NCBI GenBank assembly: GCA_046570105.1
Contig: JBKHVI010000001.1
Coordinates: 96,001 to 160,000, forward strand
DNA length: 64,000 nucleotides
Source of the DNA: Bacteriovoracia bacterium
Lineage (GTDB): Bacteria > Bdellovibrionota > Bacteriovoracia > Bacteriovoracales > Bacteriovoracaceae
Reading direction: 5' to 3'
Shown here piece by piece: positions 29,451-33,961 of the stretch. The notes below the pieces were generated by a model. The model was not told where the DNA came from and did no database searches. It was given only the letters and a program-made list of their open reading frames with translations. The stretch's first letter is position 1. Each line of letters starts with the position of its first letter. The translations under genes and the position numbers were made by a program.

Positions 29451-29479
29451 GGCCAAAAGGTGTCACTCACCTTTTGGCC
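29451..29479. repeat. REP-like perfect palindrome overlapping the RAYT stop codon
   Basis: GGCCAAAAGGTG-TCACT-CACCTTTTGGCC. Confidence 0.75.
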
Positions 29480-30089
29480 TTTTTAATGTCTCGAACAGTT
29501 TAATTTTCTTTTTATTAATATCAAACTGCCAACGTCTCAGCCCCTTGCGAATAATCGCTTCACCTTCATTTTCAATTCTCTCATTCAGCCACAGCAACTC
29601 GGCTGCCTCTCCACCTAACTCCATATTCACTCGACTATGTAATGGAAACGGCACTCGCGAAGTGAGTGTTGAATAAGGATAGAATTCCACTCTTTCAACC
29701 ATCCGCGCACGTAATGGATTTTGGTAAATATAGCGATAGACTTGATAATAATAAGCCTGATTCTCAATCAAGCTCCATTTATAGCGTCCTCCCCACAAAT
29801 GATTTGTTCCATCAGCCTTTCTCATAATTTTCACGGCCGTATTTCGCATCAATAGATGCATCACCTGATCTAGATTACATCGCGGCGTTTGAACCAACAG
29901 ATGGAAGTGATTATCCATCAAGACAAATGCATGAATACAAATCCCAAAGCGCTCTTGAACATTTTTAAGTTCATCGACAAAAATTTTCCAAACCTCGTTC
30001 ATCTCAATCGGATAGAACTGCTTGTCATTCGTTCGAGCTGTTACGTGGTAGGTATGAATATCACTGCGAATCAAAGCATTTCTCGGCAT
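29463..30089 (-). mobile_element. REP-associated tyrosine transposase (RAYT/TnpA-REP, Y1 HUH family)
   Basis: MPR start, YHVTAR, LMDNHFHLL (HUH), YIYQNPLRA (catalytic Tyr), YPYST; AAGGAG RBS. Confidence 0.9.
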
Positions 30090-30142
30090 AATTACTCCTT
30101 GTAACCCGTTACCTCTTGGCGCTTTTTTGCAGCACCAAGCGG

Positions 30143-30960
30143 TGTTAAAATTAAAACGGGAAGGAGTAAGCCTGAGGGATTCCCCCCAGACCTAGGTGCT
30201 TGTGACACCAAGAGGTTCACAGAGAACGTGGAACTGACAAAACATGGAGCGTGAGCATGCCCCTTCCCGCCTCTCTTGTTGCAAAAAGACGGGAAATTTT
30301 CCGAACACTAACTATTGAATTTTCAACAGGAGTCGTCTCACTGCGTGAGAGATTTTTTCCACTCACATGTCCGTTTTTTACCCGCGACTTGTTGGAGATG
30401 GATGAGACTTACTTCGAGTGATAAAATTAAAAAAGGGAAGAGGTAAGCCTTGAGAGATTCCTCTCAAGACCCAGGTGTGAGCACACCAAGAGGTTTAAAA
30501 AGAACATTGAACTGGCAGAGCGGTGAACTTGAGCTACCTCTTCCCGCCTCTCTTGGTGCAAAGAGACGGGAAAATTTCTACGACTCAACTATTCAAAAAA
30601 ATTCATCCATCACTTCACTGCGTGAGAGATTTTTTCCAATCACTTGTCCGATTTTTACCCGCGACTTGTTGGCGATAGATGAGAGTTCAATCAAGTGATA
30701 AAATAAAAAGGGAAGGAGTGGGCCTGAATTATTTAATTCAACCCCAGGGTGCTGTCACACCCAAGGGGTTCACCTGAACTTGGAGCTGGATGAACGTGGA
30801 GCGTGGACCTGCCCCTTCCCGCCTCTCTTGGTGCAAAGAGACGGGAAAATTTCTACGACTCAACTATTCAAAAAAATTCATCCATCACTTCACTGCGTGA
30901 GAGATTTTTTCCACTCACATGTCCGATTTTTACCCGCGACCTGTTGGAGATTGATGAGAG
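30143..30960. repeat. Three-unit tandem array (periods 277 and 275 bp): variable 111-nt structured segments plus conserved ~140-bp linkers
   Basis: Segments 30158-30268, 30435-30545 and 30710-30820 each run GGGAAG...CTTCCC; linkers 30546-30685 and 30821-30960 nearly identical. Confidence 0.9.
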
Positions 30961-31025
30961 CTGGAAGAAAATAATTGGCACTAATTCAATAAAGAACTTT
31001 CTCGTATCTCACACACATAAAAACT

Positions 31026-31062
31026 AAAAAGCCGAACGTAATTGATGTAACTACGTCCGGCT
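31026..31062 (-). terminator. Intrinsic terminator of a putative antisense RNA
   Basis: Minus strand AGCCGGACGTAGTT-acatc-AATTACGTTCGGCT-TTTT: 14 bp including two G-U pairs, then a U-tract. Confidence 0.7.
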
Positions 31063-31107
31063 CTTCTATGACGTCCAATGAAGGACGCCTTTACCAAAAG
31101 GAAATTC

Positions 31108-31182
31108 ATGGAAGAGTTAGCGCGGGTTCTGATCCTCGTTATCTTGACGATACAGCTTGCTGTATTGCTCAAGATAATTTGA
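31108..31182 (+). CDS. 24-aa hydrophobic peptide, type I toxin candidate (MEELARVLILVILTIQLAVLLKII)
   Basis: AAGGA RBS, ATG 31108, TGA 31180-31182; single TM helix; below the ORF-track cutoff. Confidence 0.65.
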   Translation: MEELARVLILVILTIQLAVLLKII

Positions 31183-31280
31183 TCGGATTTAGAGGGAGGG
31201 GAAAGCAGCCTCTCCCTCACCGTTTTAACTTCCAATCCTCAAATTCAGCATAGCTCTATTTGAATAAGCGAATCAAACTT

Positions 31281-31313: not shown

Positions 31314-31358
31314 CTACCTAAAAGTGTACCTAAAAGTGCATGACACCTTTTGGAAATT

Positions 31359-32594
31359 TTAGAACTTGTAAGTCATAGCGACGCGAGCGAGTAGACGGTT
31401 TGAATTCAAGATTCCGTTACTTGGTGCTGTGTTATTGGTCGCAGTAGCAGCCGAAGTCATCAGCAATCCGTCGATAGCGAAATCACCAAACTTCAAAGTA
31501 GCACCTGAACGGACAGATGTTGTATTCGCTTTGGTACGCTTCTTGTCTGGGTTCTGAGCGACAACGTTTGTGTTAACCAATGGCAATAGGTCTTCATCGT
31601 AGTCGTTGTCTTGCTCATTGATTATACTCTGAGAGATTGAACCACGAAGAGTCAGCCATGAAGCAGCGTCCACTTCTAAACCAACTACGACTGGAACAGC
31701 GTAATCATCAATCGTTGCTTTGCCGTCATCTTTGGTATCAAGCTCACGCTTGTTCAACACATAAGATACTTTATAGAACAAAGTCGCTTTGTCGTTAAGC
31801 TTAGTCTCGCGACCGTAACCCACGATAAAACGATCAGTTTGCGCATCAGCTTCACCTGTATAAGCAGGAGCTGCAGCTGTCGTTGCAACTTGAGAGACAG
31901 AACTCTCTTGTTCCCAAGCAGCGTGGCGCCAGAAAGCAAATACGCTTGCCTGATTGTCGATACGGTATGTTCCACCTAATTCGTAACCAAGCTTACCCTT
32001 GAATTCTTCTTTATCCCCTGCACCTGCATCAAGATCGCCCTCGAAAGAGTTGATCAATGAAACGTTAGCAAAAGCTTCAAACTTGCCAGCGATAACACCT
32101 AGACGAGCTGATAACGTCTGGCTCTCAAGATCTTCGAATGTGCCATCTGTATCATCTTTGTTTTGTGAATAAGTAAGGTTTGCTCCCCACTTAACTGAAG
32201 ACTCTCCAGCTAAGAAAAGATCAAGCTGGTTATCTTGATGAATCACTCGGCGGTTTGTGACCAAGTAGCCGCGTGCTTCGTTTACAGAAGCAGATTCGCC
32301 ACCGAAGTAAGCACCAGCGACCATGTTGTTCCAGCCGTAAAGAACACCACCCTCAGCCTGTGGATTATTATTGGCGTCAGCTTTAGTTCCCGCGGCGCCA
32401 TCACCACCCAATTCAAAGATCGCAGTATCTTTGTAATTGTTAGCATGAGCTGAGTTGAGGAAAATATTACGATTATCGTTAATGTACTGTGAGCCACCGA
32501 TATCTTCGCCTAAAGCGACGAGACGTGCTTTGGTTGCGAACGCCGGAGTCGCGAGGACTGCCAAGGCTGCTCCAAGAACAAGATGCTTTTTCAT
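31359..32594 (-). CDS. Major outer-membrane beta-barrel protein, paralog 2
   Basis: Signal peptide ...PAFA-TKARLVALG; amphipathic strands; ends MTYKF. Confidence 0.8.
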   Translation of the reverse strand: MKKHLVLGAALAVLATPAFATKARLVALGEDIGGSQYINDNRNIFLNSAHANNYKDTAIFELGGDGAAGTKADANNNPQAEGGVLYGWNNMVAGAYFGGESASVNEARGYLVTNRRVIHQDNQLDLFLAGESSVKWGANLTYSQNKDDTDGTFEDLESQTLSARLGVIAGKFEAFANVSLINSFEGDLDAGAGDKEEFKGKLGYELGGTYRIDNQASVFAFWRHAAWEQESSVSQVATTAAAPAYTGEADAQTDRFIVGYGRETKLNDKATLFYKVSYVLNKRELDTKDDGKATIDDYAVPVVVGLEVDAASWLTLRGSISQSIINEQDNDYDEDLLPLVNTNVVAQNPDKKRTKANTTSVRSGATLKFGDFAIDGLLMTSAATATNNTAPSNGILNSNRLLARVAMTYKF

Positions 32595-32670: not shown

Positions 32671-33810
32671 TTAGAAACGGTAAGTCATTGATACGCGAGT
32701 CATCAAGTTAGATGAATCGATTTCACCAGCTGTACCGCTTGCAGTGTTACCGATCATACCGTCGACAGCCATATCGCCGAACTTCAAAGAAGCACCAGCA
32801 GCTACTACAGTTGTGTTAGCTTCTGTGTTCTTGTTTGAGTCAGAGTTAGCAACTGCTGCTTTAGTTTCAACTTCGTTGATCAAGATTTCTTGAGAAACTG
32901 AACCACGAAGAGTCAACCAAGAAGCTGCGTCGAACTCAAGACCGATAGTCGCAGACAAATCGCTTTCGTTATTTTCGCCATCTTCTCCAGCATCCTTAAC
33001 ATCGCTAGTTGTATTTGTGTATGCAACTTTTGTGAAAAGAACTGCTTTGTCATTCAACTTGTCTTGGCGAGCAACACCCAAAGACATTTCGTTTGATTCA
33101 ACGTTATTATCGCCGTCAACTTCAAACTCATTCATTCCGTAATAACCGAAAGCAGTGTAGCCGTTCCAGCTGTAAGAACCACCAATTTCAGTATCACCTT
33201 TGCGCTCTACTTCTACGTCTTGATCTTTATGATCTGTCTTACCTGTGATGCCGTACTTCAAGTAAGCAGCCCATGGGCCCTGGCTAAGACCAACTGCAAG
33301 ATCCATAACATCTGTCTTAGCTTCTGTGTTTGTAGCAAGACCAGCACCGCCGTCACCAGCATTGAAGTCATCATTCTTCTGTGATGAGTAAGTCAACTGA
33401 ACGCCCCACTTGATACCAGCGTCGCCGCCGATGAAAAGATCAAGTGCGTTTGTTGCTTGATAAACGAATAGGTCACCAGCATCAACATCACCATCATCGT
33501 TAGCGTCTGTTGCAAAAGAATCAGTACCTTCGTTGTAAGAAAGATTGCGGCCCATGTGTGCGCCCCAAACCAAGTTACCAGCGTTACGGATGAATCCACC
33601 TTCGCCGTTTCCGCCGTCATTTTCTAATTCGTAAGTAACGAAATCTTTTTGGTTATTAACTTCAGACGCGTTAAGGAAGATGTTACGGTTATCTTGGATG
33701 TAGAATGAACCGTTAGTATCTTCACCCAAAGCTGCCAAACGAGCTTTAGATGCGAATGCAGGAGCAGCTAGTACAGCCAATCCAGCGGCGAGAGCGAGTT
33801 GCTTTTTCAT
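32671..33810 (-). CDS. Major outer-membrane beta-barrel protein, paralog 1
   Basis: AGGAG RBS, MKKQ...PAFA-SKARLAALG; ends MTYRF; shares NRNIFLN and DAASWLTLRGS with paralog 2. Confidence 0.8.
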   Translation of the reverse strand: MKKQLALAAGLAVLAAPAFASKARLAALGEDTNGSFYIQDNRNIFLNASEVNNQKDFVTYELENDGGNGEGGFIRNAGNLVWGAHMGRNLSYNEGTDSFATDANDDGDVDAGDLFVYQATNALDLFIGGDAGIKWGVQLTYSSQKNDDFNAGDGGAGLATNTEAKTDVMDLAVGLSQGPWAAYLKYGITGKTDHKDQDVEVERKGDTEIGGSYSWNGYTAFGYYGMNEFEVDGDNNVESNEMSLGVARQDKLNDKAVLFTKVAYTNTTSDVKDAGEDGENNESDLSATIGLEFDAASWLTLRGSVSQEILINEVETKAAVANSDSNKNTEANTTVVAAGASLKFGDMAVDGMIGNTASGTAGEIDSSNLMTRVSMTYRF

Positions 33811-33961
33811 GAAATCTCCTTGTTTCAAAATGACGTTGGTCATTCCTAAATTAAGCAAACAAATAACTTTATACGTTAAGTGTGTAAGTGTTCTTTCTTT
33901 TTGGCAATACTGTTTTTGTTGGTTGCATTTTGCATAGGGGCAAACTCATTGGTCCTATCAA

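Follow-up and report, generated by a model that had tools for sequence, protein, structure and literature searches.

Why does a tandem array in a predatory bacterium repeat the same short words at the same distances in every copy, and do these words serve an RNA, a DNA element or a coding sequence? The array lies at 30142..30959 on the + strand of the window, by which we mean the whole 64,000-nucleotide stretch of DNA analysed here. TRF reported a period of 275, 3.0 copies and 80% matches, and in our alignment of the three units of about 275 bp (alignment A1) the mean column identity is 84%; the units are paralogs. The original prediction, made from the letters alone, described four tetramers that frame variable slots in the large loop of each unit. 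The positions and letters given there are exact in all three units: GAAC gtg GAAC tgaca AAAC atg GAGC in unit 1 (30224-30250), GAAC att GAAC tggca GAGC ggt GAAC in unit 2 (30502-30528), and GAAC ttg GAGC tggat GAAC gtg GAGC in unit 3 (30776-30802).

Each unit has the same layout. Along the + strand in the 5' to 3' direction, an extended -10 box is followed after about 7 nt by a G-rich strand, two hairpins (P2 and P3), an internal G tract (AAGAGG), the strip that contains the periodic words, and a C-rich strand. Two more hairpins lie on the 3' side of the C-rich strand, the second of them with a T-run. In unit 1, the -10 box as read from the sequence is TG-n-TAAAAT (30143..30151), and the folded core, delimited by covariation counts, occupies 30158..30268. 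The core is closed by a 9-bp stem, P1, in which the G-rich strand GGGAAGGAG (30158-30166) pairs with the C-rich strand CCCCUUCCC (30260-30268); the form of this stem in the family is GGGAAGGRG paired with CCCCUUCCC. Within the core of unit 1 lie P2 (30172-30189), P3 (30195-30209, GGUG...CACC), the G tract AAGAGG (30210-30215), and a putatively single-stranded strip of about 44 nt (30216..30259). The strip contains five A-R-C triplets (30225-27, 30232-34, 30241-43, 30248-50, and 30254-56) and an invariant UG (30235-36). A terminator-like hairpin with a T-run of six (30336..30357) follows the core.

The corresponding parts of the other two units, all on the + strand, are as follows. Unit 2 has its extended -10 box at 30419-30427 and its folded core at 30435..30545, with P1 formed by 30435-43 and 30537-45, P2 at 30449-68, P3 at 30474-87, and the strip, which includes the motif, at 30494-30536. 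In the case of unit 3, the box is at 30696-30704 and the core at 30710..30820, with P1 formed by 30710-18 and 30812-20, P2 at 30725-40, P3 at 30747-62, and the motif-containing strip at 30769-30811. These two boxes, too, were read from the sequence.

The generalised pattern ARC-N3-KARC-TG-N4-ARC-N3-KARC occurs three times in the window, as against 0.00 expected from 100 dinucleotide shuffles; in the 3.0-Mb genome as a whole, with both strands counted, it also occurs three times, where about 0.09 would be expected. A pattern search found no copy of the motif outside the array on either strand of the genome. Since the array consists of paralogs, what counts is whether the pattern is kept in diverged homologs. 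The genome has four units in total, namely the three in the array and a solitary diverged copy on another contig, which sits behind an unrelated + strand gene. A DNA search gave matches in 6 of 201 Bacteriovoracaceae genomes. We built a covariance model from 15 units; in samples of 151 genomes each, it matched 6 from the family, 14 from the order (10 of 26 in one genus), and 2 from the phylum, both of the latter within Bacteriovoracaceae. With Infernal's stricter filters, none of the 127 genomes from the other 24 families of the phylum was matched.

A degenerate DNA pattern of the strip was found in 15 stretches of the species-genome collection, 13 of which carry titles of Bacteriovoracaceae type (MAGs of Bacteriovorax stolpii, Peredibacter sp. 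HCB2-198, and others). Peredibacter sp. HCB2-198, a cultivable carrier, has two units next to the Y1 gene on its chromosome (L053). The pattern matches from Paenibacillus and from an Erysipelotrichaceae MAG gave no covariance-model match and were set aside as chance. Among metagenome contigs, the strip pattern was found in 17 stretches, of which 11 match the covariance model and 6 do not. The model matches from genomes and metagenome contigs, 61 in all and 50 of them distinct, made up alignment A5; removal of five truncated or aberrant rows left the 45 full-length units used in the counts below. From this sampling, the family appears to be confined to a few genera of Bacteriovoracaceae. Rfam 15 gave nothing in the window at the gathering score, and at E values up to 10 only miRNA models, with E of at least 3.2, which we take as noise. 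Nothing on this RNA was found in the available portions of the literature on small RNAs of Bacteriovoracaceae and Peredibacter and on RAYT-linked structured RNAs. We put forward, as a possibility that we hold to be somewhat short of probable, that the units are genes for small structured RNAs of a family not described before; this prediction comes from sequence comparison.

The words are the best-kept part of the unit family. The five triplets of the 45 units give 225 cells for each triplet position: A opens the triplet in 216 of them, C ends it in 210, and the middle position has a purine without exception (A in 123, G in 102). The UG that follows triplet 2 hardly varies (U, T106 of the alignment, in 45/45 units; G, G107, in 44/45), and G143 is invariant in the 45 units. 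The triplets are spaced at 7/9/7/6, essentially without variation, and the loop columns contain only three gap cells and a single one-base insertion. The invariance of spacing claimed for the three paralogs, whose loss in a larger set of homologs would have told against it, thus extends to the 45-unit set, and so does the idea of a constant frame with variable positions. The unpaired letters of the strip are conserved across at least four genera.

Some parts of the original prediction need to be redrawn on these counts. The four tetramers are real, and a fifth triplet had been overlooked (GUG-AGC, with the triplet at 30254-30256 in unit 1). The letter before the triplet had been given as G, or as a purine in the third tetramer; the actual rule is G or U in repeats 1, 2, 4, and 5 and any base in repeat 3. 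The slots between the words do vary, as stated, and yet are not freely chosen: the 313 spacer cells that have a letter contain G in 140, U in 103, A in 62, and C in only 8. Since the spacers are rich in G and U and contain almost no C, triplets that look like bacterial start codons arise readily, and the apparent excess of start codons disappears when column composition is considered (17/43 and 15/45 observed, 14.9 and 13.8 expected).

How the slots differ between units depends on which units are compared. Between paralogs in one genome, slot identity is 149/312 = 48%, versus 75% for P2 and 76% for the tail (26 non-independent pairs); the unit tails may have been homogenised by gene conversion. 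Between ortholog-like pairs, slot identity is 94/120 = 78%, versus 70-72% for the other variable parts (10 non-independent pairs). These comparisons leave a 'specificity code' in the slots as a possibility. Ortholog-like units keep their array position in related species, at identities of 91%, 86%, and 72-77%; thus, the array is old and stable.

The three helices of the scaffold are supported by the alignment. On A5, which was itself fitted to the covariance model so that its pairing counts are inflated, 88.4% of the cells of P1, P2, and P3 together are paired, versus 72.1% in shuffles and 44-58% with slid partners, and 17 of the 20 scaffold pairs show double changes. By helix, the paired cells amount to 88.8% in P1, 89.6% in P2, and 85.2% in P3, and double changes were counted in 8 of 9, 7 of 7, and 2 of 4 pairs, respectively. 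P2 is a freely covarying hairpin, and P3 is a conserved one with GGUG opposite CACC. The C strand of P1 has a second possible partner, because the internal AAGRGG can pair with it instead of the 5' G tract (91.4% of cells paired), largely by way of G.U pairs, of which 17 cells fall at one pair. The 5' GGGAAGGRG and the internal AAGRGG are both Shine-Dalgarno-like, and the C strand that they share is anti-SD-like. The two pairings are mutually exclusive, so that a switch is possible, and their maintenance across the family suggests that the core may change conformation.

Within the strip, we found no conserved Watson-Crick helix. No strip-internal pair appeared in the top 40 by mutual information with APC, where pairs of P2 and P1 rank highest; a scan for runs of at least three column pairs with at least 75% complementarity found no helix within the strip; and the ends of the tetramers did not compensate one another, as pairing of GARC with GARC would have them do. 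A candidate strip-internal helix, P4b (YUCAC/GUGAG), had 60.4% of its cells paired with little covariation and was dropped. In partition-function folding, the mean unpaired probability was 0.52 for the ARC triplets and 0.49 for the slots, versus 0.05-0.12 for the stems. The pairing scans and the folding together agree with a single-stranded strip, as an absence of pairing evidence and not as a proof.

The flanks of the units resemble those of a transcribed gene to different degrees. Of the 45 units, 44 have TAnnnT at a fixed place in the 26 nt that precede P1, and 24 have its extended version, TGnTAnnnT. A strict scan of the family found a terminator after 9/45 units. In a separate terminator scan of the window, only the hairpin with T6 of unit 1 passes the rule; units 2 and 3 have weaker terminator-like equivalents (30614-30635 and 30889-30910, + strand), which were read by eye. 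Among the 22 sequencing runs listed, no run that contains the stretch is on record as RNA. The pairing is uninformative as to strand and molecule: among the helix cells, 39 are G.U and 49 are A.C, and since A.C is as frequent as G.U, the helices pick neither the + strand nor RNA over single-stranded DNA. In many loci (L038, L035, and L077, for example), the word at the fixed place upstream of the units often reads CTGGCAC-CTTTT-GGAC, which contains a perfect sigma-54 -24 box. A sigma-54 reading of this sequence was rejected; the -12 GC is missing by eye, and the sequence is absent from the units of the window.

Upstream of the array, at 29463..30089 on the - strand, lies a gene for a RAYT-like Y1 (HUH) transposase of 208 aa, which is transcribed away from the array; the predicted divergent promoters are only some 60 bp apart. 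Its product matches Pfam PF01797 at 1e-09 and the NCBIfam model REP_Tyr_transpos (NF047646) with 77.2 bits, where the cut-off is 80, and the motifs HFH and Y-x-Y-I-x-x-N-P are visible in its translation. A Y1 homolog lies divergently beside the array in all 15 loci for which flanks were available; it was likewise the case in all of a set of eight overlapping loci that cover six genomes. At one of the loci (G036:C4:142950-143562, L021), the array-linked Y1 gene is in two pieces, one of them with an internal TAA, and the unit still adjoins it. The other neighbours of the arrays, such as a methyltransferase and PopA-type porins, are common only within a genus, and the neighbouring proteins gave no informative Pfam family.

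The Y1 family is present in 93/151 genomes, often in several copies. In a maximum-likelihood tree, 18 array-linked and 7 array-less Y1 proteins formed one clade (100/99), and 13 other Y1 paralogs fell outside this array-linked clade. Protein identity among the Y1 proteins of the array loci falls to 38%. Beside 8 array-less Y1 orthologs and 12 paralogs, we detected no units (best E = 0.031, with filters off); seven of these orthologs are those in the clade, and the eighth locus (G039), which likewise gave no match, is absent from the tree. By eye, the Y1 paralog on contig C8 of the present genome has a photolyase-like gene upstream in place of an array. That the array-linked proteins belong to one orthologous clade, which yet has array-less members, indicates on these sequences that the linkage of Y1 gene and array is old and vertical and is not obligatory.

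A RAYT gene is usually bracketed by its REPs, and in the window REP-like palindromes bracket the Y1 gene together with the array. The first, a perfect palindrome of the form GGCC-AAAAGGTG-loop-CACCTTTT-GGCC on the - strand (29451..29479), overlaps the final codons of the Y1 gene together with its stop. The second lies beyond the array in the opposite orientation (31329..31353, + strand; C1:127342 +). The palindromes are perfect and 25-29 bp long, with about 35 copies in the genome; a 9-mer of the family has 81 matches, versus 23 expected. Most generally, they have the form CC-AAAAGGTG-5 nt-CACCTTTT-GG and variants of it, fall into sub-types of 8-9 identical copies, and cluster on some contigs, such as C54. 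The P3 hairpin of unit 1 (GGUG, with a loop ending in GUGA, and CACC; 30195-30209) resembles the core GGTG-AGTGA-CACC of the palindrome at 29451-29479. Across the family, the likeness is limited to GGUG...ACACC; it may be due to chance, or P3 may have been derived from a REP.

The closest known systems each share some features with the units. The original prediction compared the strip with the GGA repeats of CsrB-type RNAs, and CsrA is encoded in the genome (PF02599, 90.7 bits, G000:C41:19318-19473). Like CsrB, RsmY, and RsmZ, the units would be small RNAs, often in several paralogs, in which a short word recurs many times in unpaired stretches. The analogy fails on the defining GGA: because 17 of the 45 strips have no GGA at all (17 have one, 10 have two, and 1 has four), the unit is not a CsrB-type sponge. 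The repeated word here is K-A-R-C, it stands in one continuous strip with fixed spacing and not in separate hairpin loops, and the units have no Rfam match. A second comparison is with the RNAs bound by TRAP, which have (G/U)AG repeats as in the trp leader of Bacillus, and by HutP, which have UAG-N4 repeats; these are cis-acting leaders in Firmicutes. A ring-shaped protein whose subunits each read one triplet would be expected to bind triplets at a fixed short period, and the units share with these RNAs a G/U-A-R triplet repeated at a fixed period of 6-7 nt. They differ in having A as often as G in the third position, followed by C, and in having only five repeats. Searches of the genome, whose completeness is 87.8%, found no TRAP (PF02081), HutP (PF09021), or Hfq (PF17209). 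An (A-R-N)n site for the distal face of Hfq was considered and rejected; the ARC triplets are not contiguous but 3-6 letters apart, and Hfq itself was not found.

With REP, BIME, and REPIN elements and their RAYTs, the array shares its position next to a RAYT-like Y1 gene, the flanking REP-like palindromes, and the tandem covarying hairpins. It differs from them in the length of the unit (275 bp), the multi-helix core, the number of copies (4 and not dozens), the conservation of unpaired letters across genera, and the promoter-like box at a fixed distance. Among RNAs tied to a Y1 transposase gene are the small RNAs of IS200 in Salmonella, which are derived from the tnpA 5'-UTR or are antisense to it; unlike them, the units diverge from the Y1 gene and neither overlap nor precede it on the same strand. 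In type III toxin-antitoxin systems, ToxI consists of tandem 36-nt RNA repeats tied to a nuclease gene, whereas the present units are 275 bp long and each has its own promoter-like box.

Our preferred reading, which we hold tentatively, is that the strip is a multivalent single-stranded docking platform on a small RNA. Each unit of about 275 bp would be a small RNA gene of its own, transcribed from the extended -10 box about 7 nt before P1. The scaffold of P1, P2, and P3 would present the single-stranded strip with its five K-A-R-C anchors and the UG, and an oligomeric or multi-domain RNA-binding partner would read the anchors, so that the RNA acts as a sponge or as a scaffold. The tandem arrangement of the genes would multiply the number of sites, and the letters of the spacers would either tune binding or merely tolerate change. 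Such a strip would work like the RNAs that bind CsrA, TRAP, or HutP, while standing outside those families. We consider it decidedly improbable that the partner is the neighbouring Y1 (HUH) enzyme, with the strip mimicking or guiding to its single-stranded DNA sites. If so, the RNA could be a decoy that holds a domesticated transposase in check, or a programmable specificity subunit whose paralog-specific spacers choose different sites; in either role, it would mark the first time that a Y1 transposase is seen to have an RNA as cofactor or antagonist.

The chief rival to the docking platform makes the array a DNA element of the RAYT. The unit would be a large module akin to REP/BIME, with hairpins that form when the DNA is single-stranded; the Y1 (HUH) enzyme would recognise or cleave the GARC words, and the tandem array would have arisen by its action. 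Y1 enzymes of the IS200/IS605 type read tetranucleotides beside hairpins, and several of the observations above point in this direction: members of a single Y1 clade adjoin the array divergently in 15/15 loci while the other neighbours vary between genera, REP-like palindromes bracket the Y1 gene and the array, and A.C cells (49) match G.U cells (39) in the helices. In addition, 26/45 units are preceded by a half-REP-like word at a fixed position (-34 to -37), versus 38/900 random windows. We nevertheless regard the DNA element as unlikely. The unit is not dispersed, with 4 copies as against about 35 for the true REP-like palindrome; its unpaired letters are kept across at least four genera while the Y1 protein falls to 38% identity; ortholog-like units stay in order between species; and the extended -10 box keeps a fixed distance from P1. 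Moreover, seven orthologs within the Y1 clade lack an array beside them, and one unit is solitary behind an unrelated gene. If the DNA element were nevertheless correct, it would be a RAYT-associated element far more complex and better conserved than the classical REPs.

Three further readings concern the strip and its spacers. A base-pairing guide, in which the ARC frame shows the spacers as discontinuous seeds with a target for each paralog in the host, its prey, or a phage, would account for the fact that paralogs differ most in the slots (48%, versus 75% in P2 and 76% in the tail), while ortholog-like pairs keep 78% of the slot letters. In those pairs, however, the slots are no better conserved than P2 or the tail, and their restricted composition (C in 8/313 cells) is odd for free guide letters. 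The search for complementary targets proposed in the original prediction yielded none in the host genome: when the three strips were compared with the whole genome by blastn-short, all matches stayed at chance level (best E = 0.37, 14 nt), and the complementary periodic pattern is absent from both genome strands. This makes a guide quite unlikely. We give less credence again to a folded core, in which non-canonical contacts (purine-purine pairs, and A-minor interactions with P2 and P3) would pack the strip into a core that binds a ligand or is catalytic, with competition of the G tracts for the C strand as a switch. Tertiary cores typically have unpaired A, C, U, and G letters that never change, along with variation confined to purines, and both the 9-bp P1 (double changes in 8/9 pairs) and the alternative G-tract pairing (91.4%) fit such a core. 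A five-fold periodic repeat is unusual for aptamers and ribozymes, though; there is no covariation among the letters of the strip, and downstream there is no controlled gene, only a further unit or a terminator as the nearest feature. Finally, the SD-like AAGRGG followed by AUG might open a tiny ORF or leader peptide (M-N/S-x-E-L...). An ATG 11-13 nt after the start of AAGRGG occurs in 10 of the 47 units checked, with peptides of 6 to 27-plus residues, but it is missing there in the other 37, so that the start is not conserved. Because the 7/9/7/6 spacing is not a multiple of three, the conserved letters are out of codon phase; 'CUG' has an invariant third letter and a variable first letter; and no conserved ORF was found among the units. 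A coding function is hardly credible on these grounds.

To our knowledge, almost no regulatory RNAs have been described in predatory bacteria, and if the units are transcribed, they would form a new class of small RNA in these organisms. For the docking platform, the recognition surface is unusually legible, with five identical anchors at fixed spacing, which would make the search for its partner straightforward. The role of domesticated REP-associated transposases is a long-open question, and the strict tie of the array to one RAYT lineage may offer an entry to the role and the control of these enzymes.

Some features around the arrays should also be described. Just past the array of the window, the stretch 30981-31253 contains ORFs of 84 aa (- strand) and 61 aa (+ strand) that match no Pfam family. 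The same stretch recurs inside the arrays of L057 and L067, with 54-55% protein identity and in the orientation opposite to that of the units. Farther downstream, at 31359-32594 and 32671-33858, are tandem genes for porin-like outer-membrane proteins of the PopA family (NF053618, 348 and 303 bits). In a related array from a metagenome, the middle unit (L067:1412-1554, identical to L068:585-727) keeps P1, P2, and P3 and has no strip, so that AAGGGG runs almost directly into the C strand; this unit is probably a decaying copy.
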